Positions 1-22,831 of a stretch of DNA of 32,000 nucleotides are shown here, piece after piece. This stretch comes from Nostoc punctiforme PCC 73102 (GTDB lineage Bacteria > Cyanobacteriota > Cyanobacteriia > Cyanobacteriales > Nostocaceae). Under the pieces are notes generated by a model. It was not told the origin of the DNA. It saw only the letters and a list, made by a program, of their open reading frames with translations, and did no database searches. Made by a program: the position numbers and the translations under genes. The stretch is taken from the NCBI RefSeq assembly GCF_000020025.1, contig NC_010628.1, forward strand, positions 2,790,001 to 2,822,000, read 5' to 3'. How positions within the stretch are numbered: position 1 is the first letter of the stretch; the number at the start of each line of letters is the position of its first letter.

Positions 1-1367
1 TAGGGCAGAAAGTCAGCAGAGATCCCCATACCAGTGTCGCTGACAGAGATTTGAGTGTATTCCGAAGGATGAGTATCTAGTTCATTCTCGATCCTTTCTA
101 ACCGCACCTCTACTTGGCCACCCTGTGGGGTAAATTTAATCGCGTTGGAAAGTAGATTCCAAACAACCTGTTGCAGGCGACCAGAATCACCCAACACTTG
201 CCCAGCGTTCGGTTCAAATATTGTTTGAATTTGAATGGATTTAGCTTCAGCAGCGAGGCGCACGGTTTCCAGAGCAGCTTTGATGGTAAAAGTTAGACCG
301 ACTGGAACTGTATTCAAACTCAACTTGCCTTGGAGAATACGCGACACATCGAGCAAATCTTCGATCAGTTGCGCTTGCAGTTTAGCGTTACGCTCGATCG
401 TTTCGAGTGCATACTGAGTTTTGGCTGCGTCCTGCCGACTCGTTTGCAAAATTTTTGCCCATCCCAAAATAGGATTCAGGGGCGATCGCAATTCATGAGA
501 TAGCACTGCCAGAAACTCATCTTTAATCCGATTGGCTTGTTGCGCTTGTTCAGTTTGTTGCTGCAAAGAAATCATCAGCTGATTGAGGCGATCGTTCTGC
601 TCTTGCAGCAAGGCTGATGCTCGCTTCCGTTCGGTGATATCGGACAGGATGAAAACGGCACCTGTGAGAGTTCCATGCTCATCAAGTACTGGATCGATAG
701 TTTTGGCAAACCACCGTTCTGTGGACTGAAATTCTAGAACTTGCCGTTGGTGAGTTTCTTTAGCACGGCGAAAGCAGGTGCCATCACCAATTCCCAATTC
801 TGCGGCCATCAAATTATGGTGAGCACAACCTAAAATTTCGTGGGAGGGTTTGCAAAAAATCTGCGTTATCGCTAGATTACAGCGCAGAATTATACCTTTT
901 GTGTCTACGAGACACACACCGTCCTTGATAGAGTCAAAGGTACTTTGCCACTCTCGTGCTGAGGATAAAGCCGCTTCCTCCGCTCGTCGAATTCGCAGCA
1001 GCGATCGCACCGTCGCCAGCAGTTCAATGGGTTCAACAGGTTGTACCAAATAAGCATCGGCACCACTGTCTAAGCCTTCTGCTTTATCCTGGCTTTGGAC
1101 AAAACTTGCAGAAAGGTGTAGCACCGGAATAAAAGCAGTTTCGGGATTTGCCTTAATTTGACGACAGACTTCAAAGCCGCTGATATCTGGTAATTTGACA
1201 TCCAAAATCACCAGAGTAGGCTGATGTTCAGTAGCAGCTTTTAATCCTGCTACTCCGGTTGCCGCTTCCACAACGGTAAAGCCTGCATTTTGCAAAATCC
1301 GGGCCACAATGTAACGATTGGCTTCGTTATCGTCAACATGCAGGATGATAACCTGTGGCTCAAACAT
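1..1367 (-). CDS. Hybrid REC-PAS-HisKA-HATPase_c sensor kinase; the C-terminal end runs off the window
   Basis: My own minus-strand translation; it is absent from the ORF track because it is open-ended. It reads MFEPQVIILHVDDNEANRYIVARIL...LVILDVKLPDISGFEVCRQIK (receiver), then a PAS-like segment WQSTFDSIKDGVCLVD...FILSDITERKRA, the H-box ANRIKDEFLAVLSHELRSPLNPILGW, and the N-box QQVVWNLLSNAIKFTP. No stop occurs down to position 1. The ATG at 1367-1365 overlaps the upstream stop by 8 nt (ATGTTTGA). Confidence 0.85.
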   Translation of the reverse strand, partial: MFEPQVIILHVDDNEANRYIVARILQNAGFTVVEAATGVAGLKAATEHQPTLVILDVKLPDISGFEVCRQIKANPETAFIPVLHLSASFVQSQDKAEGLDSGADAYLVQPVEPIELLATVRSLLRIRRAEEAALSSAREWQSTFDSIKDGVCLVDTKGIILRCNLAITQIFCKPSHEILGCAHHNLMAAELGIGDGTCFRRAKETHQRQVLEFQSTERWFAKTIDPVLDEHGTLTGAVFILSDITERKRASALLQEQNDRLNQLMISLQQQTEQAQQANRIKDEFLAVLSHELRSPLNPILGWAKILQTSRQDAAKTQYALETIERNAKLQAQLIEDLLDVSRILQGKLSLNTVPVGLTFTIKAALETVRLAAEAKSIQIQTIFEPNAGQVLGDSGRLQQVVWNLLSNAIKFTPQGGQVEVRLERIENELDTHPSEYTQISVSDTGMGISADFLP

Positions 1368-3582
1368 GACTTTGCCCACAATCTAGAACAAGTCCGGCTT
1401 TGATCAGCGCATCTTGAAGCTGGGCGTAGACGCGTTCGCCCTTGGCGTTGCCGCAGGCTAGCGGCTTGTCGTCAGACATCGCTGCTGTTTGAGAGCCTGT
1501 TTCTTTGGAAAGAATGGCGATGCTTTTTTTTGCTAATTGGCTCTGAGTTTCTGCATCAAGTTGTGCCGATGAGTAGATGATCACAGGAATCGACTGAGTG
1601 ACAGGATTGCTTTTAAGCTGCTTAAGCACATCAAACCCACTCAACTCTGGCATCTCCAAGTCAAGAACGATCGCGGTCGGTTGCTCGCGTTGTGCTAAAT
1701 TTAATCCTTCCCATCCGTTCATGGCTTCTAAAATACTCAATTGTGTATTTATTAACAACTGCTTCACCAAATACCGATAGGCAGGGTCATCGTCAATTAA
1801 CAAGATTTTTTGAGGCTTGTTCTGATTAATTAGCGTATTAAGTTTGTTCAATAACTGCAATCTGTCTACCGGCTTAATTAAAAAACCATTGGCTCCTAGT
1901 GCTAGTGCTTGCTTCTCGTTATCAATGATGGTAATAACTACTATAGGTATATTGCGGGTCGTTTCATCTCCTTTGATTTCTCGCAAGAACGTCCAGCCGT
2001 TTTGCCCTTCTAGCATAATATCTAGCATAATCGCCGCTGGTCGAACTTGTTGTAATACTTGCCTTGCCTGAGCTAAGGTGCGGGTTGCAATCAATTGATA
2101 AGTTGACTGCTGAAGATGATTTTCGTAAATAAATAGCGTTTCGGGATGATCTTCAACCGCCAGAATGGGCAGGCCAGTTGGTTCAAGTGATGCGATGGTC
2201 TCCGACCGACCGGAGGTCATCGGTTGCAGTAGGGTGGGAAATTCGGTCGCGTATGGGTAGATAATCGGAATCGATGCCGTAAAGGTGGAGCCTTCACCCA
2301 GCTTACTTGTAACTGAAATGCTGCCGCCCAGTAGCTCCGTTAGCTTGCGCGATAACGGCAATCCTAACCCGGTTCCCTTGACCTGCTTTTGCAGAGAAGA
2401 CTCAATTTGGACAAAATCCTCAAAAATGCGCTCTCGATCGGCGGTCGCAATGCCGATGCCCGTATCTGATACGGAAAATATCACGGTATGACCCCTTTGC
2501 ACAGAGGTTACACGCACTTCTCCCTGCTCGGTAAATTTGAGGGCATTGGAGATAAAGTTTCTTAGAATTTGCGCGACTTTGCCCTCATCGCTATATATCT
2601 GCCCAATGCCTTCAGGTTCCTCGATATTCAGCGCGACAGAGGAGCCTTGAACCAATAATGGGCGTAGCATCCCCCGCAGCGTGGCAAACAAATCACTAAC
2701 TTCAAAGGAACTGGGACGCACTTCAATCTTTCCAGCTTCCACCTTTGCTAAATCCAGCAAGTCGTTGACCAGTTCTGATAATCCGCTCGCCGCCTTTTGG
2801 ATGAATGTCACCTGCTTTTCTTGCTCTGCGGTCAAATCACCATCCATTCGTGCCAGCAACATCCGAGATAACGACAGAATCGAGTTGAGCGGTGTGCGAA
2901 ACTCATGGCTCATGTTTGAGAGAAAGCGGGTTTTTAGCTCGTTGGCCTTTTGCAGAGAGTCTGCTTTTTCATCCAATTCTGCATAGAGGGCAACCACACC
3001 GCGATTGGTATCTTCCAGTTCCCGGTTCAGCTGGGTTAGTTCTTCCTCCCGCTTCCGTAACTCTGCCATTGCCCGCAGTAATTCCTGGTTTTGTCGCTGG
3101 ATCTCTTCATAGGGATTCTGGGGCGATCGCTCCATCACGCTTTCTCGAATCTGCTGCAATTGCAAATCGGTGAAATTAGGTGTGCGCTTTGATAACCTTT
3201 TACTCATCACCACCGTTGTTCCCTGTCCCGGCAGCGATTCTATCTCAAAGAAATCCATCAGCTTTTGGCTGCCTACAATGCCTAGCCCCATTCCTGTATC
3301 AGAAGCGTAGCGTCCTGCCAAAACGTCTTCCAGATGAGGAATGCCACCACCCCGATCCTGAATCCGAATCAGAAACTCTTGAGGTTCTCCTGCCACAGAA
3401 AATTCAACCGTTCCACCTCTGGCATACTGAAAGGCATTGCGGGCAATTTCTGAAACTGCCGTTGCCAATCGTGCCTGATCTTGAGTATCAAAGCCCAATT
3501 GCTCGGCAATCTCACGAGTTCGCTGCCGAGCTTGGACAACATCTTGTTCGTTCTGGATTTCGAGGATGAAAATAGTTGTCAA
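1360..3582 (-). CDS. Hybrid histidine kinase: N-terminal RsbT/RsbW-type GHKL domain, coiled coil, HisKA, HATPase_c, two receiver domains
   Basis: 740-aa ORF. Residues 1-130 are paralogous to the RsbT-like protein upstream (EIARNAFQYA N-box, IQDRGGGIP G1, DTGMGLGIVG G2). The H-box is NMSHEFRTPLNSI and the CA domain contains VSDTGIGI...GTGLGLPLS. REC1 is ILAVEDHP...IMLDIML...LIKPV and REC2 is ILLIDDDP...IVLDLEMPELSGF. The start is TTG, with GGAG 10 nt upstream and an in-frame TGA three codons upstream, so there is no ATG alternative. Confidence 0.85.
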   Translation of the reverse strand: MTTIFILEIQNEQDVVQARQRTREIAEQLGFDTQDQARLATAVSEIARNAFQYARGGTVEFSVAGEPQEFLIRIQDRGGGIPHLEDVLAGRYASDTGMGLGIVGSQKLMDFFEIESLPGQGTTVVMSKRLSKRTPNFTDLQLQQIRESVMERSPQNPYEEIQRQNQELLRAMAELRKREEELTQLNRELEDTNRGVVALYAELDEKADSLQKANELKTRFLSNMSHEFRTPLNSILSLSRMLLARMDGDLTAEQEKQVTFIQKAASGLSELVNDLLDLAKVEAGKIEVRPSSFEVSDLFATLRGMLRPLLVQGSSVALNIEEPEGIGQIYSDEGKVAQILRNFISNALKFTEQGEVRVTSVQRGHTVIFSVSDTGIGIATADRERIFEDFVQIESSLQKQVKGTGLGLPLSRKLTELLGGSISVTSKLGEGSTFTASIPIIYPYATEFPTLLQPMTSGRSETIASLEPTGLPILAVEDHPETLFIYENHLQQSTYQLIATRTLAQARQVLQQVRPAAIMLDIMLEGQNGWTFLREIKGDETTRNIPIVVITIIDNEKQALALGANGFLIKPVDRLQLLNKLNTLINQNKPQKILLIDDDPAYRYLVKQLLINTQLSILEAMNGWEGLNLAQREQPTAIVLDLEMPELSGFDVLKQLKSNPVTQSIPVIIYSSAQLDAETQSQLAKKSIAILSKETGSQTAAMSDDKPLACGNAKGERVYAQLQDALIKAGLVLDCGQSHV

Positions 3583-3616
3583 GTCGCTTCACTCCAATTC
3601 AAAATTCTTAAATATT

Positions 3617-3658
3617 CTGCCCCCTGCCTCCTGCCCCCTGCTTCCTGCCCCCTGCTTT
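3617..3658. repeat. STRR-like heptanucleotide tandem array, 6 units (CTGCCCC/CTGCCTC/CTGCTTC)
   Basis: Read directly: ctgcccc ctgcctc ctgcccc ctgcttc ctgcccc ctgcttt. The array fills the 3583-3656 intergenic gap and overlaps the TAA of the PP2C gene by 2 nt. Confidence 0.85.
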
Positions 3659-4661
3659 AATTGCTCATTCCTTTAGCCACTAACACTGTCACATCGTCTC
3701 GGTCTCGGTTAAAGTCTCGGTATAAGACACCTGCAATCAGGCTGGGATGTTTTTGACTCAAGCCTGGATAGCGATCGAGCTGCCACTTACTGTCTAATCC
3801 GTCAGAATGCATAATTAAAAGTCCGTTGGCATACCAGGGATAGCTAAACTCTTGAATTTTGCGAATTTCATGTCCCACCGTGCCGTTGTTAGATATCAGA
3901 TGGTGGCGTTCAGTAAAGGAGAAGATGCTAGCAGCGATATTGCCAATTCCGGCAAAGCGGACAGACTGTTGTTCAAAGTCGATTTCAGTAATGCCGAGTG
4001 CTGCTCCTCGCGTACTTCGCAAGGCGGCGTGGGCAGCTTCGACGATCGCACCAGGAGAGCGATCGTGTTCTTGAAAGATTCTGACGGCTTTTGAGGAAGC
4101 AGTAGCCGCCGCAGGCCCATGCCCTAAGCCATCGGCTACTAGCAACAGGCTGCGGCAACGATCGACTTGATATGCCCAGGCATCTCCTGAAATGTCCTCA
4201 CCTCGTTTGGGCAAACAAATCGCCCCAATTTCTAAGATTTTTTCAGGCTCATGGGGTGCGGAGGTTGACCAGAGGTGGGCGAGGAGCGCCGTCCCCTGGT
4301 TGCGAATGGAGTAAATTTCAAATAAACCAGACAGGCGAGAAATTGCGCCCAGTCCATTGCCTAAGGTTCCGGCGGTGGAAAAGCCATCTTGCAAACACTC
4401 ATCCACATCAACCATTCCCCGTCCTTTATCTAGGGACAAGACTTCAATACCAATAGCTGAATTGTGTTCGATCAATCTTAGCAACAACACTCCACCCTTA
4501 CCGTGCTGTATCAGATTACTCGCAACCTCTGTCACCACAATGCCAAGCTTGCCCCGTTGCGTTTCCTGAAAGCCGAGCTGAGTTGCCAAAGCGATCGCTA
4601 CCCGTCGCGCTTCCCCGGTCTGGCTAGATTCAGTAATTGTAATGGCGACAGATTCTCTCAT
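3657..4661 (-). CDS. RsbT-like GHKL domain fused to a PP2C (SpoIIE-type) Ser/Thr phosphatase; occupies the RsbX/RsbU position in the module
   Basis: The N-terminal half has EVASNLIQHG (N-box), SLDKGRGMVD (G1) and GTLGNGLGA (G2). The C-terminal half has PP2C motifs ISGDAW, LLVADGLGHGPAAA, LLIMHSDGL and DDVTVLV. The ORF track starts at a TTG at 4679. The ATG at 4661 sits 1 nt after the rsbT-like stop (TAAAATG), so I prefer it. Confidence 0.85.
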   Translation of the reverse strand: MRESVAITITESSQTGEARRVAIALATQLGFQETQRGKLGIVVTEVASNLIQHGKGGVLLLRLIEHNSAIGIEVLSLDKGRGMVDVDECLQDGFSTAGTLGNGLGAISRLSGLFEIYSIRNQGTALLAHLWSTSAPHEPEKILEIGAICLPKRGEDISGDAWAYQVDRCRSLLLVADGLGHGPAAATASSKAVRIFQEHDRSPGAIVEAAHAALRSTRGAALGITEIDFEQQSVRFAGIGNIAASIFSFTERHHLISNNGTVGHEIRKIQEFSYPWYANGLLIMHSDGLDSKWQLDRYPGLSQKHPSLIAGVLYRDFNRDRDDVTVLVAKGMSN

Positions 4662-4662
4662 T

Positions 4663-5067
4663 TTATTTCCATCGTACAATTATTACCCGTGTTCCTTCTC
4701 CCACCGCAGACTGAATCTCAAACTCGTTAGCAAGTCGTTTAGCACCGCTCAATCCCATACCCAATCCGCTACCCGTGGTGAACCCATCCTTCAGCGCCAG
4801 ATCAATATCGGGAATTCCCGGGCCCCGATCTTCAAAGGTCAGCCGGAGTCCTCGTCGTCTCCCTTCCTGAAGCGTTTCTAGTTTTACTGTGCCACCTCCC
4901 CCATAGTCTAGGGTATTGCGGGCTAACTCACTGGCGGCGGTGACAATTTTTGTTTGGTCTACTAAGCCAAAGCCAATTTCCACGGCCAGCAGGCGCACGG
5001 CTTGCCGAACTAAGACTACATCTGTAGAAGATTGAATGTCGATTGTTTCAGTCTTCTGCATCGTCAT
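4663..5067 (-). CDS. rsbT: RsbT-like stressosome switch kinase (anti-sigma regulatory factor type Ser/Thr kinase)
   Basis: IDIQSSTDVVLVRQAVRLLAVEIGFG...ELARNTLDYGGGG...FEDRGPGIPD...GSGLGMGLSG...VRWK is colinear with B. subtilis RsbT as I recall it. The start is ambiguous (ATG at 5109, 5067 or 5061). The internal ATGs give the RsbT-like length and overlap the rsbS-like stop. Confidence 0.85.
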   Translation of the reverse strand: MTMQKTETIDIQSSTDVVLVRQAVRLLAVEIGFGLVDQTKIVTAASELARNTLDYGGGGTVKLETLQEGRRRGLRLTFEDRGPGIPDIDLALKDGFTTGSGLGMGLSGAKRLANEFEIQSAVGEGTRVIIVRWK

Positions 5068-5461
5068 CTGCACGCCATTGAGTGGCAATGACCTGATTTG
5101 TAGTTTCATTGAGTGACGATCGCAAGAGTGCCATACCTTTTTCTACGTTTAGGGCAGTGCGAATACCCGTCAGCGACAGCCCCAATTCCACCAGGGTAAT
5201 TGCCACAGCAGGCTGCATCCCAACGACAACTGTTTGGGCATCCAACACCCGTGATATTCTGGCAATGTTGCCTAAAATCCTCCCAATGAAGGAATCGACA
5301 ATTTCTAATCCAGAAATATCGATCAAGACACCGTGAGCGTGAGTTTGAGTGATGCGGTTGGTCAAGTCATCCTGTAAAGTCATGGCGAGGCGATCGTACA
5401 TATCCACTTGAATTGTCACAAGTAGGAAATTGCCCATTTTGAGTATAGGAATACGTTCCAT
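5048..5461 (-). CDS. rsbS: RsbS-like single STAS-domain stressosome scaffold protein
   Basis: 137-aa ORF. MERIPILKMGNFLLVTIQVD...VLIDISGLEIVDSFIGRILGNIA carries the conserved phosphorylatable Ser in the DS motif. The position between the RsbR-like and RsbT-like genes matches the canonical order. Confidence 0.85.
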   Translation of the reverse strand: MERIPILKMGNFLLVTIQVDMYDRLAMTLQDDLTNRITQTHAHGVLIDISGLEIVDSFIGRILGNIARISRVLDAQTVVVGMQPAVAITLVELGLSLTGIRTALNVEKGMALLRSSLNETTNQVIATQWRADDDAED

Positions 5462-5472
5462 TGGTTCCTACC

Positions 5473-6324
5473 TCATTTGGGTTGAGAGGGGGTAATACTC
5501 ACTCCCAAACGTTTTAGTGCTATGAGAAAGGCATCAGCTAAGGTTGCCTTCGTTGTGATATCAGTCAAATCAATGCCGAGATAAACGATCGTTTGGGCAA
5601 TTTGAGGACGAATCCCACTAATCATACAATCGGCTCCCATGAGACGGGCAGCAGTAACGGTCTTGAGCAGATGTTGAGCGGTGAGGGTATCCACGGTGGG
5701 AACCCCCGTAATGTCAATGATGGCAATTTCTGACCCGGTTTCAACAATTTTCTGCAACAACGACTCCATCATCATTTGCGTGCGGGCACTATCCAGGGTG
5801 CCGATAATGGGTAATGCCAAAATTCCTTCCCAAAGTTTAATCACTGGGGTAGATAGCTCCATCAACTCTTCCTGCTGCCGCAAAATCACGTCTTCCCGCG
5901 CCTTTTGATACACTTCAATTGTCAGCAATCCCAGCTGATCCAGTAAGTTGGTGGCTAGCCATATCTCCTCACTCAACTCAATGGGGTCTTGCAATTGCTG
6001 ACGCATCCGCTTGAAAAGGGGTTGCTTGAACGAAAAGACGAATGTAGCTGTTTCCGCCGGTGTGAAGCCTTTTTGCGATCGCGATCGAGAAATGCTGTTT
6101 AGTATCTCTCGCATATCCTCCCACGCCCCTGCCTGAATATTGGTCAACTTGCCCTGCCCAACGGCACTCCGAAACAAGCTCAGGAATTCCCGGCACTCCT
6201 CCTTTAGCTCGGCTTCTTTAATCAAGCCTTTCCGAATATTGACATTGGCTAACTCCTGAGTCCACTCTGACAGCAAGTCTGCCTCAAAGGTTTCCAGGAT
6301 TTCTGGTATCTTACTTTCGCTCAT
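5473..6324 (-). CDS. rsbR: RsbR-like stressosome sensor: N-terminal non-heme globin-like domain plus C-terminal STAS
   Basis: The C-terminus AIIDITGVPTVDTLTAQHLLKTVTAARLMGADCMISGIRPQIAQT is STAS with a Thr in the VDT motif. The N-terminus PEILETFEADLLSEWTQEL... is an RsbR N-domain-like helical sensor. The ORF track starts at a GTG at 6345; the ATG (MSESK...) at 6324 is more likely. An 11-nt gap (GGTAGGAACCA) separates it from the rsbS-like ATG. Confidence 0.8.
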   Translation of the reverse strand: MSESKIPEILETFEADLLSEWTQELANVNIRKGLIKEAELKEECREFLSLFRSAVGQGKLTNIQAGAWEDMREILNSISRSRSQKGFTPAETATFVFSFKQPLFKRMRQQLQDPIELSEEIWLATNLLDQLGLLTIEVYQKAREDVILRQQEELMELSTPVIKLWEGILALPIIGTLDSARTQMMMESLLQKIVETGSEIAIIDITGVPTVDTLTAQHLLKTVTAARLMGADCMISGIRPQIAQTIVYLGIDLTDITTKATLADAFLIALKRLGVSITPSQPK

Positions 6325-6408
6325 CGTTCTTATAAGGGCAACCACTTTGATTAGTCCAAAATCAGTGTATGCTGATTCAGACCAACGCGAAAGTCGTTCG
6401 TTGGCAGC

Positions 6409-8616
6409 TCATATTAAACTAGCGATCGCTTCTACTAGTTCTTCGGGATCAATCGGTTTGGATAAGTGTCTTTGAAAACCTGCTGCGAGAGCTTGTTTTT
6501 GATCGGATTCTCCAGCATAAGCTGTCAGCGCGATCGCTTTTATCTGTCCGCCTTGTCCTTTTGGCCAACTTCTTACCTGACGGATGAGCATATATCCGTC
6601 CATCTCTGGCATAGCAATATCACAGATGAGAATATCTGGCTGAGATTGTTTTAATATCTTTAATGCCTCACGACCGGATGCGGCGGCTGTCACTTCTGCA
6701 CCATATTGCTCAATCATGAATACCAGTAGTTCTCGCGTATCTTGCTCATCCTCTACTGTCAGCACCCGCACACCGCGCAAATTCAACGAGATTTTAGGTA
6801 AACTTTTATTTTGATTTGGTTGTAAAAATGTAGTGATGAGCGGTAATCTAACTGTAAATATTGCTCCTTGGTCTTCTCCTTTGCTGTCTGCGTGAACTGT
6901 ACCACCATGCATTTCTACAATGTGTCGGACAATTGCTAATCCTAATCCCAAGCCGCCAAACTTGCGTGTTGTGGCACTATCAGCTTGACGGAATGTTTCA
7001 AACACGTAAGGTAAAAACTCTGGTGTAATCCCCTTGCCTGTATCGCTAACTTGAATCTGAGTGTAGGTATTGGTAGACTCTAATTTGATTTTTACCTCGC
7101 CGCCAGTTGGGGTAAACTTCACCGCATTAGTAAGTAAATTCCACACTACTTGTTGCAAGCGACTAGCATCACCCATAAAAAGCTGGACATCTGGTGCAAT
7201 CTCAGTGTGAATTTGAATCGATTTCGCTTCTGCTGCTAAAGCGACTGTTTCATTGGCAGCTGCAATAGTTGCAGCTAAATCAACTGAAGAAATGTTCAGC
7301 GTTAATTTGCCTTGCAGAATGCGGGAGACATCTAATAAATCAGCGATCAGTTGAGTTTGTAATTTAGCATTGCGTTCGATTGTTTCTAAAGCGATCGCTT
7401 TTTTCTCCTCACTTAATTGGTGAGTCCGCAGCAATTTTATCCAGCCAAGTATCGGATTTAGCGGCGTTCGCAATTCATGAGACAACACCGCCAAAAATTC
7501 ATCTTTAATGCGGTTGGCAGTTTCAGCTGCTTCTCGTGCAGCTTGTTCGCGTAGCAGTAATTCTTCGCGTTCTTCTTCCGCTCGCCTGCGGGAAGTCACA
7601 TCAATTGCTACTCCCCCTACCAAAGATTGCCCAGATAAATGAGCAATGGGGAATTTATAAACGAGGAAATCGCCTATTGTGCCATCCAGACGAGGTGCCA
7701 TTTCAATTGTCTCTAAAACCTGATTAGTTTTAGCCACTGTTTGGATGTTGTTTAATAATTGGGTGGCAATCTCAAGATCAAACAATTCAAATGCAGTTTT
7801 GCCGATCGCATCTTGAGTAAATAGCTGAAAAGTATTTACATAAGTCGGACTAAGGTAAATAACTTTACCATCTGCATCTGTAATCCAAGCAGCAGCAGGA
7901 CTATGTGCCATGAATGCCTGAAAGCGTTCTTCACTTTCTTGCCGCACTTCTTCGGCTTGCTTGCGCTCGCTAATGTCAATGTTGACTCCTAAAAAACACT
8001 CGGCTTGTCCCTCTGCATCTCGGATAATTTGCCCTTTCGATGCTACCCAAATAACTGTATTATCTCTGCGGACAATGCGGAATTCGTCGTAATATTCCTT
8101 ACCTTCAGCTAATACTTTTTCTACTCCTTCCATAACCCGTGGGCGATCGTTAGGATGGATAAAATCAACCCAAGGTTTCACACCAGGTTCTTCTGTACCT
8201 ATTTCCAACCCCAAAATCTCCCAGATTCCTTCCGACCAAAATACCTCACCAGTAGCTACATTCCACTCCCAAGTCCCAATTTTTCCTGCTCTTTGTGCCA
8301 TTTGGAGGCGTTGTTCGCTTTGTCGCAATGCTTGCTCCGTTCGCTTGCGTTCGCCAATATCACGAGATACAGCAATTACACCTGCGATCGCTTGCTCAGG
8401 ATTATATAAAGGAGCCAAAATATATTCGTAACAATGCACTCCATCAACGGTATTATATTCGGTCTCTGCTCTGATGGGTTGCCCCGTTGTCATTACTGTT
8501 TCTCGTTGGGTGTCTACCCGACGCATCGTAGTAAACATTTCTGGGGCAAAATCAAGTTCTTGCCAAGTCTTACCGACTATCTCTTTTGGCTGATAACCTA
8601 AACCGCAGCCCCACCT
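6409..8616 (-). CDS. C-terminal part of a split sensor hybrid kinase: second half of a PAS domain, two further PAS domains, HisKA, HATPase_c, REC
   Basis: The ORF track gives 6409..8538, but the frame stays open upstream to 8616. The product begins mid-PAS (…[30 protein letters not shown]…). The H-box is [19 protein letters not shown], the CA domain contains VSDTGKGI...[10 protein letters not shown], and the receiver is VLTVEDEQD...[13 protein letters not shown]...LSKPI. Confidence 0.8.
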   Translation of the reverse strand, partial: [735 protein letters not shown]

Positions 8617-10226
8617 TCACTGACATACTGATAATGACCATGCCGATCAAAAATATAAATATGATCTACTGAGGCAGAGAGAATCGCATTTAAGATATTG
8701 GCTTGATGTTGCACCTGGCTCATCAACTTACGTGTGCATTCTTCTGCCTGCTTGCGTTCAGTAATATTCAAAAATGCAGCTACCGATCCTCTAGGATTAT
8801 CCTGTTCATCAAGTAGGGGAGCAGCATAACCAAATAAATTAAATATAGTGCCATTACCGCGAACGATATCAACTTCTGTGCCTTTGACTTCTGTATTATG
8901 AATGGCTGCATAACGTAGCGGATATTCTTCTGGTGAGAGTTCCTTTCCCTGCCGCAAAATTTTGTAAGATGGAGGCGGAGCATTAACGGGAGTAGAGGAA
9001 ACATTAACTTCAGGCAAGATACCTAAAATCTCAGCAAATGCTGGGTTAGATTTTACCTCCTTAAATTCCATATCTTCCGCGATCAGAATGCCAATAGGAA
9101 TTAACTCAAATAAAGTTTGCATATTTTGGCTCAGAGAAGCGATCGCGATTTCCCGTGCTTCTAGTGCTGCGGCCATTTTGTCAATCGCTTGCGCCAGTTG
9201 ACTAAGTTCTCCCGATATATGAGCAAGTCCAGTACGAGTGTTGAGTTGACCACTACCCAAGGTCTTGGCTGTTTGCACTAAAGATTGTATCTGGTTGAGA
9301 AAAAATACATCTCCACCTACCCAAGCAGCTGCGATCGCTAAAAAAGTAACTGCACCTAAACTAATTAAGTTTCTGAATAATAAACTATCAGCATTAGCAA
9401 AAACTTCAGACTTGGGAATACCAATCCTGATATATCCATCCGGCTTGACTGGATTATCGCCCAAAGGAATAAAGGCAAAGATTCGCGGCACACCATCAAG
9501 GCTAGTCACTTCATCGATCCCCTCAACCTGAGCGATTTTCATTCTGGCGAAAGCATCCGGCGATATAGATTTACCTACCCAATTTTGCGTATTGGGATAG
9601 CGGACTAAAAGTGTTCCTTTCTTGTCAACCAAACTCAGCACCGAGCCTTGAGGCATTTTTATTTGCGCCGCCAACTGATTTAACTGAGCTAAATCAAGTG
9701 CAGCTACAACCACAGTTTGCACTCGCCCTGCTTTGTCTAAAATTGGGTAAGCGAAATTCAGGGTAGCTTTTTTAGTGACGCGATCTATTTGATAATCACC
9801 AACCACAAATTTCCGAGTTTGCAAAGCACGTTGGAAATAACTGCGGTCTCTGAGATTCACAGAGCCAGAGTAGGCAATCCCAGTACAAATCACGTTTCCT
9901 TGACCATCAAGTACGGCAAAATTAGCGTAAGCTGAGTGTTGTTTCAGGATATCGGTCAACAATTGATTGCACTCTGCTGAATTACCCTGACGGACAACTG
10001 GCAGCTGTGCCAATATCATCAGCAGTTGACGGGTTCCTTCTACAACCTGTTTTTGGTTATTAGCCGCCAATCTCGCCAGCCGTAGTGTCTGTTCTCGTGC
10101 CTCTACTGTAGCGGTACGCCGTTGTTCGGAAGCAGTGTACAGAATTAATCCTAGTGCTGGAACAACAGCTAAAAGGACGAGAAGTACTAAGCGAATGCGA
10201 AGTGTACTGTTTAACCAAGAGCGCAT
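8598..10226 (-). CDS. N-terminal part of the same split sensor kinase: TM, Cache-like periplasmic domain, TM, HAMP, PAS, first half of the next PAS
   Basis: 542-aa ORF. TM1 is [20 protein letters not shown]. It is followed by a roughly 250-aa extracytoplasmic segment with a Cache-like pattern, then TM2 [19 protein letters not shown], a HAMP-like linker and a PAS domain. The ORF ends ...[21 protein letters not shown], inside a PAS core. Confidence 0.8.
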   Translation of the reverse strand: [542 protein letters not shown]

Positions 10227-10347
10227 TATGGTTTAGTTCGATTTGCTACACATAATTTTGAACCAAAATATAAAATTCGAAACTGTTATTCACTGAAGCA
10301 ATGAGCAAAATCAAGGCTTTGGACAAGGGGTGTAGGTAAAAAAACTC

Positions 10348-11355
10348 TTATAATCTTATACCCAGTCTCGACAAACAGTTTTTCTGCGTAAGTTCTGATT
10401 GTAACAATTGAGCGATCGCAGGCACCTTTAGAATATATATGCAGTAAGAAACAAAGTGCAATGGTTTCTTACCCAAAAAAGAAAAGACATGGATACTACA
10501 AAAATGACTGCACAGTTCACTCTTTTCAACGCTGACTAGGTATGAAGTTAACTCCAGATGCGTAGTGCGATTTATGAATTTTCTGTAAATAATCCATTCT
10601 TTTTCGGAAGAAGCCACCATGCAAGCTGTATATCTTCTACATACCGAACCACTTATACAGTAACCGGGGCATTGAATTTATGAAGCCCCATGTAATTTCT
10701 AGCGAGAGCTAAAGCTGTTCTCTTGTCAAACAAGAGAACAGTGAAAGCATTCTCAATCAGCCCTGTGGTGGAGCGCTCAAAAAGCGGGAGCCACCTTTGT
10801 ATTTCAAGCAATTTAATAAAAGTTCTTCTAGCATCACAGAAGCTGTTAACAGACGCTATCGCTTCCGTTATGGATGGAAGAAACAAAATTAAGATGCACC
10901 AAAAATTACACTTTTATTGTGTCCTGACAGTTAAGACCGATCCCCCAATGATGCTTTGTCGCCCGTACAGAAGCTTGGTTGTAGGGTTGAGACGGTTATG
11001 ACATTGGTGAAATGGTTGCTGCCATTATCCCGTTTAGGAGACTGTATTCATCCGTCAACCCAGGTCAGGGCACTTAATGCTCTCTTGATTTGATTTAATC
11101 TTCGGATTTTTAATTCATTTATTGACCAATTTGAATTGGCTAAGAAATGGTGTAATGACGCTCGCTGAGTTATACTCACAACTTAGCTATTTCTGGTAAT
11201 GATTTTATTTTTATTGGCGAGATTATTCCTAAGTGCAAATATTTGAAGCATTCATAATTTCTCACCTCTTTAAATAAATCTTGATACTCTGCACAATATT
11301 CATCTACGATCGCTTCCAGCGGGCGGTTACGCCATCGCAACTGTTGGGTGGGCAT
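10348..11355 (-). mobile_element. Decayed IS4/IS701-superfamily-like transposase relic with several frameshifts and stops
   Basis: My own translation gives three pieces. 11355..11179 (TGA at 11178-11176) reads MPTQQLRWRNRPLEAIVDEYCAEYQDLFKEVRNYECFKYLHLGIISPIKIKSLPEIAKL*. 11182..11051, in a shifted frame, reads VVSITQRASLHHFLANSNWSINELKIRRLNQIKRAL. A third frame reads LTDEYSLLNG...WGIGLNCQ. The ORF-track 10348..10620 piece (...WIIYRKFINRTTHLELTS...SELTQKNCLSRLGIRL) resembles the C-terminal motifs. These patterns match my memory of cyanobacterial IS701-like transposases; this was not searched. Confidence 0.45.
10836..10886. repeat. 51-nt dispersed repeat, copy 1 (direct repeat of 11460..11510)
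   Basis: acagaagctgttaacagacgctatcgcttccgttatggatggaagaaacaa versus acagaagctgtttacggacgcgctcgcttccgttatggatggaagaaacaa: 47 of 51 identical. It contains the small hairpin cttcc-gttatggat-ggaag. Confidence 0.85.
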
Positions 11356-11459
11356 CTCTAGCTAAATGTTTCAGGATTTGTAATTCTACATCCATTGCCC
11401 TGGCTTACCTGAAGAGAGTTTTTTCTTTTAATCCTTTTATTAAGAATACTCGGAAAGTG

Positions 11460-11510
11460 ACAGAAGCTGTTTACGGACGCGCTCGCTTCCGTTATGGATG
11501 GAAGAAACAA
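11460..11510. repeat. 51-nt dispersed repeat, copy 2
   Basis: See copy 1. It lies between the IS relic start and the REC-kinase stop, 8 nt from a heptamer array. Confidence 0.85.
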
Positions 11511-11518
11511 GTCAAATC

Positions 11519-11549
11519 CTCTTCCCTTCTGCCTTCTGCCTCCTGCCTT
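11519..11549. repeat. STRR-like heptanucleotide array (about 3-4 units of CTGCCTT/CTGCCTC)
   Basis: cttcccttctgccttctgcctcctgcctt, read directly. It lies about 37 nt downstream (minus sense) of the stop of the 509-aa kinase. Confidence 0.7.
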
Positions 11550-11585
11550 GTTTCTTAGGAGAGGGATAATACACATCTCTATAAA

Positions 11586-13115
11586 TTAGATTTTAACCTT
11601 CACTGGGTCTTGTATTGAAATATCGATGACAAACTCTGTACCCTTACCTGGCATGGAAGAGCAGCTTAAATTGCCTCCATGCTGTTGCACCACAATCGAG
11701 TAACTAGTCGATAATCCTAAACCTGTACCACTGCCTATAGGTTTAGTGGTGAAAAAAGGATTGAATATGCTGTTTAGTGTCGACTCATTCATGCCTGGAC
11801 CATTGTCAGCAATACGAATCAGTACCTTATTAGCATCGTGAATTTCAGTGCGAATGTGAATTATGGGGAGCGGACATTGGGAAAATATCTCACTTGTGAT
11901 TTCCCCGTCGCCAGCGATGCACTGAGCCGGTCGTTGTGTCCCCATTTCCAAAGCATCAATTGCATTACTTAAAATATTCATAAATACCTGATTGAGGTCA
12001 CTGGCATAGCATTTGACCAAAGGCAGTTGACCATATTCTTTAATTACTGTAATTTTTGGATGATTATCATTAGCTTGAAGTCGGTGCTGTAAAATTAACA
12101 GAGTGCTATCAATGCCGGAGTGAATATCTACTGGTTTAATTCCCGCTTCATCTAGGCGGGAGAAGTTACGCAGTGAGTCCACAATATGTTTAATACGTTC
12201 AGCTCCAGCTTGCATTGAGTTGAATAGTTTAGGTAAATCTTCCATCAAAAACGGTAAATCAATAGACTCTGTTGTAGTTTGGATCGCCTTCACTGGAGCG
12301 GGATAATGTTGTTGATAGGTTTTGATGAGTTTTAACAGAGCCTGCACATAAGTTTCAGTATGAAACAAGTTGCCATAAATAAAGTTGGCAGGATTGTTTA
12401 TTTCGTGAGCAACTCCTGCAACCATTTGCCCTAAAGACGACATTTTTTCAGCTTGAATCAGTTGAGCTTGAGTTTTTTGAAGATGGTCTAAGGCTAGAGT
12501 TAATTTAGAATTTTGGTTTTCTATTGTGAGGATATTACTGTAGGAACGGAGGGAAGAAATCACCACTGTAATCAGTTTTTGTCGTGTCAGTTCTGTCTTC
12601 AGGCGATAGTCGTTAATATCGTAGCCCAGAATAACTGAGGCTTCCGGCGCTTCTCCAGGCTGACCTGTACGTAAAACAATTCGTACTTTGTGGTTGTGCA
12701 ATTCTGCTCTAATATACTGAACCACCTGTAATCCAGCATCATGTGTTTCCATAACGACATCCAGCAAAATTAATGCTGTATCTGGATGTGCCTGGATTAA
12801 AGACTTCGCTTCTGTACCAGAGTAAGCATGGAAAAACATCAGTGGTTTACTCTCAAAGGTGCAATCTTCCAGAACTAGGGTCGTGGCTCGATGGACTAAT
12901 ACATCATCATCCACGATCAAGACTTTCCAAACTGCTACAGGCGCTGGTGGAGAGTTTGGAACCGCTTGGGAAGTAATATCATCTTCATTGCTTGGTTGTC
13001 TACCATCGTCATCTGCAAAGATAAACGCATCATTGTTGTCCGCAAAGACGAAAAGAGCGTCAGTTGCTGAGTTGGAAACCCTTTGATTTTCGCTCGACAT
13101 ACTCGATCCTCTCAT
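11586..13115 (-). CDS. Receiver-domain histidine kinase (N-terminal acidic tail, REC, coiled coil, HisKA-like, HATPase_c)
   Basis: 509-aa ORF. The receiver is VLIVDDDVLVHR...ILLDVVMET...GYDINDYRLK. The H-box is QMVAGVAHEINNPANF. The CA domain contains LSNAIDA...IADNGPGM...GSGTGLGLS. The ATG lies 15 nt downstream of the stop of the 1801-aa gene. Confidence 0.85.
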   Translation of the reverse strand: MRGSSMSSENQRVSNSATDALFVFADNNDAFIFADDDGRQPSNEDDITSQAVPNSPPAPVAVWKVLIVDDDVLVHRATTLVLEDCTFESKPLMFFHAYSGTEAKSLIQAHPDTALILLDVVMETHDAGLQVVQYIRAELHNHKVRIVLRTGQPGEAPEASVILGYDINDYRLKTELTRQKLITVVISSLRSYSNILTIENQNSKLTLALDHLQKTQAQLIQAEKMSSLGQMVAGVAHEINNPANFIYGNLFHTETYVQALLKLIKTYQQHYPAPVKAIQTTTESIDLPFLMEDLPKLFNSMQAGAERIKHIVDSLRNFSRLDEAGIKPVDIHSGIDSTLLILQHRLQANDNHPKITVIKEYGQLPLVKCYASDLNQVFMNILSNAIDALEMGTQRPAQCIAGDGEITSEIFSQCPLPIIHIRTEIHDANKVLIRIADNGPGMNESTLNSIFNPFFTTKPIGSGTGLGLSTSYSIVVQQHGGNLSCSSMPGKGTEFVIDISIQDPVKVKI

Positions 13116-13130: not shown

Positions 13131-16100
13131 TTATGGAGTAACCTGTGGTTCAAGTGGAAGGGTTACTATAAATAGAGTTCCCTTCTCCACTTCGCTTTGC
13201 ACATTGATTCTTCCTTGCAATTTTTGGGTGACTAGATTATAGACAATATGCAGTCCTAACCCTGTTCCACCGCGATGTCTGGCGGTGGTGAAGAAAGGTT
13301 CAAAAATGCGGCTTAGATGCTCTTCAGGGATACCACAGCCATCATCACTGTATTGAACGATCGCCCGATCGCCTTGCTGCAAGACCTGAAAGTACATCTG
13401 CCCAGCTTCTCCGGGCTGATATGCGTGCATGAGGGAGTTCATTACCAAATTGGTGACAACTTGTGCCAATGCTCCTGGATAACTGCTGATGGTTACAGTA
13501 TCATCACCCGTCACAGTCACCGTATGTAGTGTTTGTCTTAAATTTGGTGCCAAACTAAAAAGTGTTTCTTCCAGATAGACTTTAACCTTAATAGTGCGTT
13601 GCTCCAAGTTGGTTTGATCGACAGCAACCTGTTTGAAACTTTGCACCAATTCTGCGGCATTATTAAGGTTTGTCAAAATAATGTCTCCGCATTCTTTAGC
13701 AATGTTTAGGTAGTTGGTCAAATCAGACCGTTTCAGCTTCCCCTGCTCAACTGTCGCCATGAGAGCGGTAGTTTTATCAATCAGGGTTGATACCAATGTG
13801 ATGCTAGTTCCAACAGGGGTGTTGACTTCATGAGCAACCCCTGCGACAAGGCTACCTAAAGCAGCCATTTTTTTGGATTCTACGAGCTGATCTTGAGTAG
13901 TTTTGAGTTCTTCTAGAGCTTGAGAAAGTTGTTGAGTGCGATCGCTAACTTTCTGTTCGAGAGTATTGTAGAGATTAGCATTTTCGAGCGAAATGGCAGC
14001 TTGGGATGATAGAAGCTTAACAATTTCTAAACGGTCTGGTGTAAACGCTTCTGTAGCTAGGTTATTTTCCAGATACAAAATTCCCAGCAGTTTACCTTGA
14101 TGCACAATGGGATTACATAGTAGGCTTTTGGGCTGCTGCTTTCTGATGTATAAATCATTTACCAAAGTCGCCTCTGTACTAGCATCAGCGATGACATGGG
14201 ATTTTAGACTCCGTTTGACAAGGTAAATCAGACTGAGAGGAATATCAAAACTCCGATCGATTGGCAATCCTGGCCCAACGCTGGGTTCTTGTCCTAGTTG
14301 AGCGATCGCTTCTACTCGCAAGTCATTATCCTGGATCAAGATCAGCACACATTTGCTAGCTCCAGCATTGGTCATGATTGCATTGAGCAAGCTAATCAGC
14401 AATTTGTCTAATTGAATCTCGCTAGACAGGCTCTGGGAGGCTTTGAAGATAGTGGCAAAATCCAAGGCTTCAGAGATAGAAGTACTGCTGGAGCTAGATG
14501 TTTGCGTCGGTTGATGAATCGTGCGGGCAGGTATCGCGAGGGTTTCTAAGGGCTGGAAAGTGAATTGCTTTTGTTGCAGAATATGTTGTAGTAATTGCGG
14601 ATAACGTGTTTCCAAGTCATCGATTTTAGCTTTGGCATCCCAACGAGAGTAGCAGTAGTAGGCTTCTTGGATGTAGGCTTGAGCCACCTTTTCTCCGCCC
14701 CAATTGAGGTAGAATTTGGCTGCCAACTCATTGCTCAGTGCTTCTTCGTTAAGGTAGCCATTTTCTTTAGCACCCGCAATGGCGCGATCGTAATACTCCA
14801 TTGCTTTGAGCGTATCTCCCATCACCCGCGCTGTCTCTGCCTCAACTAAATCATACTTGTGCTGGTAATTAGCAGGAGCATTATCAGCCCAGTCGCGCAT
14901 AAGTTTTTGGTTGGTAAATACCTGGTTGAGCCAACGTTCCGACTGGTTACAATCTGCCTCCTCTAGACAAGCTGAACATAATGCAAGTAAGGACAAAGAG
15001 TAGTAAAAGTTATGTCCAGTAACAAGTAGTAAACCAAAGGCTCCATCTACAAACTCAGTAGCCTGCTCTGCACAGATTACAGCCTGTTCATACTTTTCAA
15101 AGGCATAAAGGATAACTGTTTTGGCTACATAGGTTGCAAATAGTGACTGATGATTATGGGTGCTATGAAAATGCAGTAGCATTTCCGTTTCATTAAAATC
15201 AGTACCAGTTAGGTGAAACCGATCGGAGGCTTGTCCAAGAAAGTTTAAAGTGAGTTGCTTCCAAATCTTGGCATAATCAACACAATGCTTTTGTTTAAAG
15301 TTTAAAAGTAGATCGATATATTGTGTTTGCTTTTTCTCAACAGAATCTAGAGGTTCTCCAATTAGGAATAAATGTGCAGACTCAGCCATTATTGAATAGC
15401 TAGTGTATTCGATGTCTCCGACCTCTAGTCCACACTGCATACTTTCTTGTAAAAATGTGAGTGTATTTCGACCATGCTCCTTACAAGCACAGATAAAAAC
15501 ACCAAAGAGCATATAAATTTTGGAACTGTGTTCTTTGGCATGATATTGCTTTAAGAGGTTTAGAGATATTTGACCTGAGTGATAAGCTGTATCTACATCT
15601 TTGATTACAGCACACAGAAATAAGCCATAAATTCCATAAACATAAGCAGCCAAGGATGAATGTCCCTGCTCAAGACAAAGCTGGAGCATTGTCAGCGCTA
15701 CTGACGGAAACATATCTGGTTTGACATGATGAACAGGAGGAGTAATGCTAATCAGCAACCGGAGTGCAGCCAGAGATTCAGGATCGATCATCTCTGGAAT
15801 ATTGGCTAAACTTGTCAACTCTGGTAGTTGCTGTAAATAATTTTCCTGCTCTACACCAGGTAATCTCAACGAAATTTTTAACTGTTCTAGTGCTTTTAAC
15901 CCTGTTTCAATAGCTTGAACTTGCCGATCTTGGGCAATATAAACTTGAACTTTTAGCTCATAGCTTTTAATTCTGTGCAACAGATGCGTGGTTTGCTGCA
16001 ATATCAGGTCTGTTAGAGTTATAGCTTGTTCAAAGTGGGTATTTAAGTATTCTGCTTCTGCGGCTTCTTCATACAGCGCCAGCATTAGAAGATACTGATT

Positions 16101-19896: not shown

Positions 19897-20208
19897 CCTG
19901 ATGGAACTCATCAGCTTTGCTTATTTAAAGCCCAAGTTACAAGCAAGCTAGAGGATTTGATTTCAAATGAATTTCCGCGATCGTTTACCTAAATCTGCAA
20001 TATTGCGGTTACTTATACTATTTACATGTGAGTGAAGCTGCACAAAACCAACCTTGATAAAGCAAGGGGGCTGAAGCCGCTTATATACAACCTCACAGAT
20101 AACGATGTTGGGGACAAAAATATTCCAACCAATGCCCGTAGCCACTTTCAAGACGGTCGCTACAATGATTTGCACTTAACCTAATGAAAAAGTTAAATGT
20201 GTTGTAGT

Positions 20209-20634
20209 TTATTTAAATAACTCCAAACATTCATTTTTTAAAATGCCTTTGGTGACTTTGATGTTTCTAAATGATTTAGCGATTACCTCTTCGCAAGATA
20301 AATTAATTTGTGATTGATTTATCGAGATTAAGTCTTGAATTGAAGCACCATATACAATTTCTGATAAACCACTCCAAACACAAGCAGTTGCACACATTGG
20401 ACAAGGTTCGCAAGTTGTATATATACTATAACCTTCTAAAAAATGGTTTTTAAGTTTAGCTGTTAAACTACGAATAACGTTGATTTCAGCATGGGCTGAT
20501 GGATCGTTGTCTCTGCTGACAGTATTATGAGCTACGGCAACAACTTCATTATCTTTAACAATCACAGCACCGTAAGGCGTATCTCCTTCTTTTGCTTGCG
20601 CCAAAGCTAAACGCATAAAATATTCTGGAATCAT
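20209..20634 (-). CDS. CMP/dCMP-type zinc deaminase (guanine/nucleoside deaminase or TadA-like)
   Basis: 141-aa ORF with the zinc motifs HAE (SAHAEINV) and PCPMC (TTCEPCPMCATA). The N-terminus YFMRLALAQAKEG...PYGAVIV is typical of the family. Confidence 0.8.
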   Translation of the reverse strand: MIPEYFMRLALAQAKEGDTPYGAVIVKDNEVVAVAHNTVSRDNDPSAHAEINVIRSLTAKLKNHFLEGYSIYTTCEPCPMCATACVWSGLSEIVYGASIQDLISINQSQINLSCEEVIAKSFRNIKVTKGILKNECLELFK

Positions 20635-20722
20635 AGAAAGTGAGGTTAATATAAGGATAGTGATTAATAATATCGTATTTATGATGCTATAAATGGGAAT
20701 TAAGATTAGTTAATAGTCGAAT

Positions 20723-21514: not shown

Positions 21515-21573
21515 AATGCGATGTCTACGGCGGTATATAGTGCTAATTACCGGGTAGTTCGAGAATATAGTCA

Positions 21574-22461: not shown

Positions 22462-22581
22462 TTTTTGAACAAAGATACGAGAGAGTACAGCAGGTCTAAA
22501 AGTCTTACAAAAAACATACAAATTGCCACATGGCAGTGAGTATATGTAAAAGAGCAGTTATAATTCCCACAATCATTAGAC

Positions 22582-22608
22582 ATCTTGCAAAAGTAACTTT
22601 TGCAAGAT
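22582..22608. repeat. Perfect 27-nt palindrome (13-bp arms)
   Basis: atcttgcaaaagt-a-acttttgcaagat, in the 370-nt gap between the hydrolase and glycosyltransferase genes. Confidence 0.8.
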
Positions 22609-22831
22609 ATTAGGGAAAGATGAAAGGTTAAAGGAAAATTCCATGCTGTACCTCTTCCCCTTTCCCCCACTTCTGCAAAAAGTCTATTGCAGCCCATCTC
22701 TTAATCCTTTCCAGGATCAAGGAGCAGAGTTCTTAGAGTTTAAGAAGGTAGTTAAGCGAACATAATATTTATTGAAACGGCGATCCATGACAGATATATA
22801 ATTAGTTGAGCTTTATTAGTGAGCAATAAAT

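Follow-up and report, generated by a model that had tools for sequence, protein, structure and literature searches.

A stressosome-type operon in Nostoc punctiforme with RsbT-like domains on its phosphatase and on a hybrid histidine kinase

A stretch of 32,000 nucleotides from the cyanobacterium Nostoc punctiforme PCC 73102 (contig NC_010628.1, positions 2,790,001 to 2,822,000; hereafter the window) was analyzed for a stressosome-type operon at its left end. Six co-directional genes lie on the minus strand within window positions 1-6345. The first, rsbR (5473-6324), starts with ATG at 6324 (the longest open reading frame, or ORF, would begin at GTG 6345), and the second, rsbS (5048-5461), encodes a single STAS domain. 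The third, rsbT (4663-5067; 134 residues), was assigned the ATG at 5067, a start that is backed by the orthologues and gives a 20-nt overlap with rsbS; its longest ORF begins at 5109. These are followed by a gene for a phosphatase composed of a GHKL and a PP2C domain (3657-4661; ATG at 4661) and by a gene for a hybrid histidine kinase, kinase 1 (1360-3582), with a TTG start, the sequence GGAG 9 nt upstream of it, and an in-frame stop just before. The last gene, for a second hybrid kinase, kinase 2 (1-1367), is represented by its 5' part, from 1367 to the window start, where it is cut off.

For comparison, relatives of the GHKL-PP2C phosphatase were collected. There were 7025 at E ≤ 1e-5 among 8000 candidates, forming 1336 clusters (50% identity, E ≤ 1e-30), and the best 150 were all about 335 residues long with a full-length match. 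A locus scan was then conducted on one genome per species using a 12-sequence alignment. It returned at least 536 loci, and the best 80 were kept and underlie the locus counts given here. Gene orders at these loci were taken from our own ORF calls and phmmer domain mapping. The closest genome among the 80 was Nostoc sp. LEGE 12450, with a 98% identical phosphatase.

The six genes are tightly packed. An 11-nt gap (5462-5472) separates rsbR from rsbS, the sequence TAAAATG at 4665-4659 joins rsbT to the phosphatase gene, and the two kinase genes overlap by 8 nt (ATGTTTGA, 1367-1360). Between the phosphatase and kinase 1 genes is a 74-nt spacer (3583-3656), which contains a heptamer array at 3617-3655 (CTGCCCC on the plus strand, period 7, 5.6 copies by Tandem Repeats Finder). 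A prior examination by a model that had only the letters and their ORFs (the sequence-only reading) had described six packed co-directional genes, and every junction that it listed matches. In most of the other loci, the phosphatase and kinase 1 genes are 0 to -4 nt apart, with a 4-nt overlap being typical; the heptamer-filled spacer is a lineage-specific insertion. Other Nostoc loci have unrelated repeats at the same junction (TAATGAG, TTACTCA, and TAATTCG heptamers, a 21-mer, and a 63-mer), and the spacers of the Nostoc clade range from 55 to about 1130 nt. Besides the one in the window, the repeat-bearing junctions are at 9402-9472 in locus L007, 9644-9864 in L008, which has the longest spacer (1.1 kb), 9408-9619 in L009, and 9438-10105 in L011. 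We take this junction to be a repeat hot spot of the short tandemly repeated repetitive (STRR) kind, as in heterocystous cyanobacteria.

The operon is richer in GC than its surroundings, as the sequence-only reading had also reported: positions 1-6345 have 48.3%, and the remaining window has 40.7%. The GC content at third codon positions (GC3) agrees, with 0.42-0.54 for the operon and 0.21-0.40 for most other window genes. Across hosts, the cassette has 46-53% GC with flanks from 35% to 58%. The higher GC was considered as a mark of recent transfer and found not to be decisive, since horizontal spread and compositional constraint both fit. The promoter would be expected in the upstream intergenic region on the minus strand (6325-6408), and none was identified there by a scan for the sigma-70 consensus, the hits of which were not above those in shuffled sequence. 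Promoter and terminator scans of 1-11600 likewise did no better than on shuffled sequence, and the operon ends yielded no useful signal.

The first three products resemble the subunits of known stressosomes. RsbR has an RsbRD_N domain (Pfam E-value 2.4e-27) and a C-terminal STAS domain (2.8e-14), and it matched RsbR chains of stressosomes in the PDB (7o0i_B, 3e-35; 9o3o_A, 4e-34 over residues 9-265). Ser179 (5788-5790) and Thr213 (5686-5688) are its candidate phospho-acceptors. Ser179 aligns with residue 175 of 9o3o_A, which is an Ala, and Thr213 aligns with its Thr209; by our own residue count, 9o3o_A is presumably Listeria RsbR with Thr175 changed to Ala. The RsbR phospho-acceptors are T171 and T205 in Bacillus subtilis and T175 and T209 in Listeria. 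Ser179 and Thr213 were invariant in 78 of 78 orthologues. Between phyla as far apart as Cyanobacteria, Acidobacteriota, and Proteobacteria, the RsbR STAS domain (5473-5900) is 62-100% identical, with a median of 76%, and the sensor domain has a median identity of only 46%. This points either to unusually strong constraint on the STAS domain or to a recent horizontal spread, and the high conservation fits a surface common to many partners. RsbR N-domains are described in the literature as non-heme globins. A Vibrio-type heme globin was considered for this N-domain and rejected, as the domain matches RsbRD_N and aligns with the N-domain of 9o3o_A. The match to Vibrio RsbR is limited to the linker and STAS domain (residues 116-278).

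RsbS matched B. subtilis RsbS (6jhk, E-value 1.9e-32) and Listeria RsbS (6qcm_A, 1.2e-30), both over the full length. Its Ser57 (5291-5293) aligns with the acceptor serine of the DS(F) motif, an Ala in the mutant chain 9o4r_a, and is the predicted target of RsbT; an hDS motif was present in 77 of 80 RsbS orthologues. RsbT matched HATPase_c (5e-14) and HATPase_c_2 in Pfam and SpoIIAB in the PDB (3e-5). Its N-box Asn, DxGxG, and GxGxG motifs are invariant in 81 of 81 sequences, and by its sequence it is a free GHKL serine/threonine switch kinase. RsbR, RsbS, and RsbT are, as judged by alignment, orthologous to solved stressosome subunits, with their acceptors conserved. The sequence-only reading had placed RsbR and RsbS in these families, in agreement with Pfam and PDB matches at E-values of 1e-30 to 1e-35, and the phospho-acceptor residues are in place in the alignments. 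Pfam also confirmed its domain calls for each of the six products.

The phosphatase starts with an RsbT-like GHKL domain of 131 residues (4269-4661), which is 31% identical to the adjacent RsbT (E-value 3e-19). Its R19, E45, N49, D78xGxG, and GxGxG are invariant, and its AlphaFold2 (AF2) model resembles SpoIIAB (template-modeling (TM) score of 0.76-0.78 in Foldseek). The rest is an RsbX-type minimal PP2C domain (3657-4235; Pfam SpoIIE, 2e-10). The AF2 model of the whole phosphatase had a predicted local distance difference test score (pLDDT) of 92.9 and a predicted TM score of 0.92. In Foldseek, the closest structural match of the PP2C domain was MtX of Moorella (3zt9; TM score 0.90, root mean square deviation 1.8, 27% identity), followed by B. 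subtilis RsbX (3w40; 0.83). The aspartates D160, D177, D287, and D322/D323 are invariant across orthologues, and from what is known of PP2C enzymes we presume them to be candidate metal-binding residues. The gene 4 product combines an RsbX-type PP2C with an RsbT paralogue at its N-terminus, which makes it a fusion variant and not the canonical single-domain RsbX. Its orthologues have generic database names, such as 'ATP-binding SpoIIE family protein phosphatase' and 'anti-sigma regulatory factor'.

Kinase 1 also begins with an RsbT-like GHKL domain (3196-3582; Pfam HATPase_c_2, E-value 2.8e-17). It is 38% identical to the adjacent RsbT (1e-26) and is the sole domain N-terminal to the dimerization and histidine phosphotransfer (DHp) domain. 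The helical linker from it to the phospho-acceptor His (2908-3114) holds the invariant motif ELEDTNRGVVALYAELDE. This motif, E-L-E-D-T-N-R-G-V-V-A-L-Y-A-E-L-D-E at about residues 191-208 (2959-3012), lies just upstream of the H-box and is conserved across phyla far above the remaining linker; it may serve for binding or for setting the helix register. From the last strand of the RsbT-like domain to the His, the distance is 97 residues in 51 of 70 loci, and the others have mostly 94-98 residues, or 104-105 (6 loci). The AF2 model of residues 1-300 (pLDDT 86) consists of the GHKL domain, a short helix, and then a continuous helix of 87 residues (157-243) that passes through His226. The catalytic and receiver part (1360-2907) matched HisKA (3e-17), HATPase_c (3e-40), and Response_reg (1e-36, two stretches), and the translation places His226 at 2905-2907 and the receiver aspartates Asp521 and Asp641 at 2020-2022 and 1660-1662.

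According to the model, kinase 1 is laid out as a sensor domain joined to a kinase by a signaling helix. A recent paper advances the same logic for RsbU, for histidine kinases, and for diguanylate cyclases (PMC12143880). Since the RsbT-like domain is the only N-terminal domain and is set at a nearly fixed spacing, mostly of 97 residues, on a continuous helix with an invariant motif, it would be the input of kinase 1. Querying with the first 217 residues of kinase 1 turned up no different architectures; the matches were mostly gene fragments, and all were of the GHKL plus HisKA type. An orthologue among named kinases was sought and rejected, as the best NCBIfam models (TorS, HrmK, and ArcB) all scored far under their cut-offs.

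The part of kinase 2 within the window has a receiver (REC, E-value 6.5e-22), a PAS_4 domain (2e-11), a HisKA domain (6e-16), and an HATPase_c domain that is incomplete at the window edge; by translation, Asp56 is at 1200-1202 and His291 at 495-497. Full-length orthologues have the order REC-PAS-histidine kinase-REC. Neither kinase has a GGDEF, EAL, or HD-GYP domain, and Pfam gave no match to RsbU_N at E ≤ 0.01 on either kinase or the PP2C protein; in kinase 1 and the phosphatase, the N-terminus is an HATPase_c_2 domain of SpoIIAB-like fold. As a separate observation, the kinase 2 receiver keeps its acidic pocket, phospho-Asp, and Ser in the orthologues (loci L005-L084) and departs from canonical receivers in a family-specific way at residue 109 (region 1038-1049). 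This is normally the universal Lys before the conserved Pro. Of 54 orthologues, 51 have Q, E, H, or D there and 2 have Arg, and Lys is never among the five commonest residues at the position.

The three RsbT-type domains, free RsbT and those of the phosphatase and kinase 1, were extracted from the 80 loci and aligned (239 sequences). They form three classes, with identities of 0.63, 0.53, and 0.49 within classes and 0.24-0.36 between them, and all 239 nearest neighbors fall in their own class. Such clean orthologous classes across loci indicate that the triplication predates the spread of the cassette. All three retain the N-box Asn, DxGxG, GxGxG, and a Glu with little or no variation, and helix 1 has an Arg that is the same in 239 of 239 sequences. 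When the HMMER alignment is extended without gaps, this Arg would correspond to Arg20 of SpoIIAB. In SpoIIAB, Arg20 is a partner-binding residue. The extra domains of the phosphatase and kinase 1 are, by sequence comparison, RsbT paralogues and not generic GHKL domains. The earlier label of 'GHKL' for them was therefore a correct domain call that was too generic. We regard these paralogues as the most informative trait of the locus because they suggest a coupling mechanism.

The common order at the 80 loci is RsbR, RsbS, RsbT, a phosphatase with an RsbT-like domain and PP2C, a kinase with an RsbT-like domain and HisKA-HATPase-REC(-REC), and a kinase with REC(-PAS)-HisKA-HATPase(-REC). RsbS and RsbT were each found in 80/80 loci, RsbR in 79/80, and the kinase with the RsbT-like domain in 76/80. 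Of the 63 loci with room for the receiver-first kinase, 52 have it. Genes of the cassette overlap by 4 nt in most taxa. The arrangement is far beyond chance, with the order recurring in 80 independent loci. These span about 15 phyla. By their record titles, the hosts include Nostocales and other filamentous cyanobacteria, Sericytochromatia, Acidobacteriota, Gemmatimonadota, Planctomycetota, Myxococcota, Alpha- and Betaproteobacteria (Methylobacterium, Janthinobacterium), Verrucomicrobiota, Chloroflexota, Heliomicrobium, Propionibacteriaceae, Methylomirabilota, Desulfuromonadaceae, Kapaibacterium, and an archaeon, a Methanoregula. The six-gene order proposed by the sequence-only reading is thus supported by the 80 loci, but its restriction to a 'cyanobacterial version' is not. 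No extra STAS or small GHKL ORF adjoined the cassette in the 80 loci, and no conserved seventh gene (regulator, histidine phosphotransfer (Hpt) protein, or cyclic di-GMP enzyme) flanked it in 65 loci beyond close relatives. Because no outside gene family is conserved with it, the cassette looks self-contained and probably moves horizontally. The locus in the window is an ordinary member, and its own peculiarity is only the repeat-filled spacer.

No RsbV, RsbW-like, further STAS, small GHKL, or sigma factor ORF was found in the 32-kb window, which agrees with the sequence-only reading. Its overall description, in which a PP2C and two hybrid kinases take the place of a sigma cascade after an RsbR-RsbS-RsbT module, is supported by the domains and the synteny. 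In two reports that both cite Pane-Farre 2005, sigB-less rsbRST(X) modules are recorded for Cyanobacteria, Bacteroidetes, Proteobacteria, Deinococci, and some archaea, where they adjoin two-component, cyclic di-GMP, or PP2C genes (PMC9237108, PMC10014275). The earlier statement that modules linked to two-component genes are known in other phyla is therefore correct, while their cyanobacterial occurrence had already been published (Heinz 2022, PMC9237108); no cyanobacterial entry is listed in the supplements of that paper. We found no experimental work on a cyanobacterial stressosome in the literature searched, in line with the view that the cyanobacterial version is uncharacterized. No description of RsbT-like domains fused to the phosphatase and kinase was found in the literature reached, which excluded Pane-Farre 2005/2017 and Quin 2012, and the fusions may already have been noted in those papers.

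Among the closest characterized systems are the stressosomes of B. subtilis and Listeria. These share the RsbR architecture and family (RsbRD_N-family domain plus STAS) in a full-length alignment, the rsbR-rsbS-rsbT order, the Ser/Thr acceptors, and an RsbX-type PP2C, and the RsbS described here is nearer to Bacillus RsbS (E-value 2e-32) than to Vibrio RsbS (9e-11). Unlike these systems, the cassette is without RsbU, RsbV, RsbW, and a sigma factor, its phosphatase follows directly after rsbT and has an N-terminal RsbT paralogue, and its output consists of a pair of hybrid histidine kinases. At the first RsbR site it has Ser, as in Vibrio RsbR, and not Thr as in B. subtilis and Listeria. The rsbRSTX module of Vibrio vulnificus and V. 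brasiliensis, with D1 and D2, is likewise sigB-less and continues with a PP2C and then two-component genes (PMC9237108, PMC10014275, PMC4976288). The Vibrio system has been investigated by experiment, and its kinase also has no RsbU_N domain. However, Vibrio RsbR has a heme globin-coupled sensor in place of the RsbRD_N-family domain, Vibrio RsbX is a single-domain PP2C not fused to an RsbT-like domain (PMC9237108), and the Vibrio output is thought to control cyclic di-GMP, in contrast to the two histidine kinase/receiver proteins found here.

Two further systems share parts of the design. Moorella thermoacetica MtR-MtS-MtT-MtX with the diguanylate cyclase MtG also has a non-sigma output (Quin 2012, as cited in PMC12143880 and PMC4976288), and its MtX is the best structural match noted above. 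Effectors of Moorella and some Proteobacteria accept RsbT via an RsbU_N domain (PMC12143880). As far as these citing papers describe it, MtG takes RsbT through an RsbU_N-like domain, while the effector here is a histidine kinase with an RsbT-like GHKL domain. Multidomain partner-switch proteins such as Mycobacterium tuberculosis Rv1364c (3ke6) also join an RsbW/RsbT-type GHKL domain and a PP2C domain in one chain. In the cassette, the order is reversed (GHKL, then PP2C), the chain is without PAS and STAS domains, and the phosphatase gene is obligatorily placed after rsbRST. The structural match to Rv1364c (E-value 2e-8) is weaker than that to MtX (5e-17).

We propose, with moderate confidence, that the operon encodes a stressosome-type partner-switching sensor with a His-Asp phosphorelay output, coupled by the fused RsbT-like domains. 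Homology, architecture, and synteny are the support for this model, and we infer the remainder. Most stressosome-linked kinases have no RsbU_N domain, and in Vibrio the RsbT-D1 interaction could not be shown and the coupling was stated to be unknown (PMC9237108), which leaves room for such a model. RsbR and RsbS would build a STAS scaffold, with the RsbR N-terminal domain taking in the signal, and free RsbT would phosphorylate RsbS at Ser57 and RsbR at Ser179 and Thr213. The RsbT-like domain of the phosphatase would bring the PP2C domain to the scaffold, where removal of the phosphates would correspond to the reset role of RsbX. Kinase 1 may bind the same STAS surfaces through its RsbT-like domain according to their phosphorylation state, and the docking or release of this domain would be relayed via the long helix to the DHp domain, thereby switching autophosphorylation. 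Phosphate would then pass to the kinase 1 receivers and to Asp56 in the kinase 2 receiver. Kinase 2 could contribute a PAS input and signal to an unlinked regulator.

More tentatively, and with less than even confidence, we suggest that the STAS scaffold directly sequesters the kinase. The fused RsbT-like domains would then compete with free RsbT on RsbS and RsbR, making the scaffold a platform for three RsbT-type clients that converts Ser/Thr switching into a His-Asp phosphorelay, in a distinct, horizontally spread, pan-phylum cassette. Several points weigh against the coupling model. Conservation of the ATP motifs is no proof of STAS binding, and retention of free RsbT in all 80 loci means that the fused domains are no simple replacement for it. 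The cassette encodes no Hpt domain and no output regulator. The broken junction between genes 4 and 5 in Nostoc (74 nt here and up to 1.1 kb in L008) could uncouple kinase expression. Also, known stressosomes are pseudo-icosahedral complexes of RsbR and RsbS of about 1.5-1.8 MDa that sequester RsbT, and such a megadalton particle is putative here.

The main alternative explanation, which we find somewhat doubtful, is that only free RsbT docks on the STAS scaffold. Once released, it would bind the RsbT-like domains by GHKL-GHKL heterodimerization, much as SpoIIAB and RsbW form homodimers. The fused domains would then stand in for the RsbU_N domain of Bacillus and Moorella, accepting RsbT and not competing with it. 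Free RsbT, present in every locus, requires a target, and RsbU_N is absent. In the known logic of the family, released RsbT activates the effector via its N-terminal domain and a helical linker (PMC12143880), and kinase 1 has exactly such a long linker. However, a pure docking domain would not need intact ATP motifs, yet the two fused classes keep them with almost no variation. The helix-1 Arg, by extrapolation a contact to STAS or another partner, is invariant in all classes, which suggests the same kind of partner for each. We also know of no precedent for heterodimerization of RsbT.

It is unlikely that the operon is a simple soluble partner switch, in which RsbR and RsbS act as STAS antagonists of the RsbV/SpoIIAA type on three GHKL kinases with no icosahedral scaffold. 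Soluble STAS/GHKL/PP2C triads are common (RsbV-RsbW and SpoIIAA-SpoIIAB), and assembly is not readable from sequence. Yet over their entire lengths RsbS and the STAS domain of RsbR match subunits of solved stressosome cores at E-values of 1e-30 to 1e-35, while the match to the SpoIIAA type is far poorer (NCBIfam spore_II_AA, 8e-5). The rsbR-rsbS-rsbT order and the two-domain RsbR are those of assembling systems, and the STAS domains are conserved to an extreme degree. That the histidine kinases are mere neighbors, their N-terminal GHKL domain being an autonomous ATP/energy-sensing or self-regulating domain, is very unlikely because of the synteny: signaling genes do cluster in cyanobacterial genomes, with at least four other kinase genes in the window and a repeat-interrupted gene 4/5 junction in Nostoc, but in 76 of 80 loci across about 15 phyla the order persists, with genes overlapping by 4 nt and no further neighbor being conserved, and the GHKL domain of kinase 1 has its greatest similarity to RsbT, the gene of which lies two places upstream.

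Some features outside the operon were also noted. The two ORFs upstream of rsbR on the minus strand (6409-10226) belong to a single sensor kinase gene, which a 1-nt deletion in a T-run has divided at about 8598-8603, where GCGGTTTTAGG becomes GCGGTTTAGG. One ORF (8598-10226) encodes dCache-HAMP-PAS and the other (6409-8538) PAS-PAS-HisKA-HATPase-REC; the gene is intact (about 1272 residues) in Nostoc sp. LEGE 12450 and 12447. The deletion is probably real in the strain, leaving a pseudogene or a split gene, since it is also found in independent read assemblies (L002, 100% identical). The gene-poor region 10300-11580 contains short ORFs that resemble transposase remnants by eye and a segment of about 45 nt that occurs twice (about 10835-10885 and 11460-11510; peptide ...FLPSITEA.ASVNSFC...), and it is probably a decayed insertion sequence or miniature inverted-repeat transposable element (MITE). 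On the minus strand at 13131-18536 is a gene for a protein of 1801 residues (Ser/Thr kinase-AAA_16-GAF-HATPase) with an in-frame heptanucleotide array, CCTTCTG x7.9, at 17790-17844, and the same heptamer occurs again in intergenic DNA at 11525-11549. An AT-rich island (20000-25300; 30-36% GC, window 42%) is possibly foreign DNA. It has an ORF of 812 residues with no Pfam match (22832-25270; GC 30.8%, GC3 0.21) and a small gene of the cytidine deaminase family (20209-20634; GC3 0.23). Lastly, a surface protein of 543 residues (28310-29941) has a DUF1565/beta-helix part and SLH domains, and the long (Pro-Thr)n linker between them is encoded by an 18-nt/12-nt tandem repeat (28893-29065).

How stressosomes are coupled to their outputs outside of Bacillus and Listeria is an open question, and fused RsbT-type domains give it a concrete, testable answer. 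If the sequestration proposal is true, a scaffold-sequestered kinase would be how sigB-less stressosomes without RsbU_N reach their outputs. The cassette is present in hundreds of species, with the output kinase and the reset phosphatase each carrying an RsbT-type domain. Cyanobacteria, Acidobacteriota, Gemmatimonadota, Planctomycetota, and many soil Proteobacteria would thus share a stress-sensing pathway with a conserved sensor domain, and work on one model organism may inform many.

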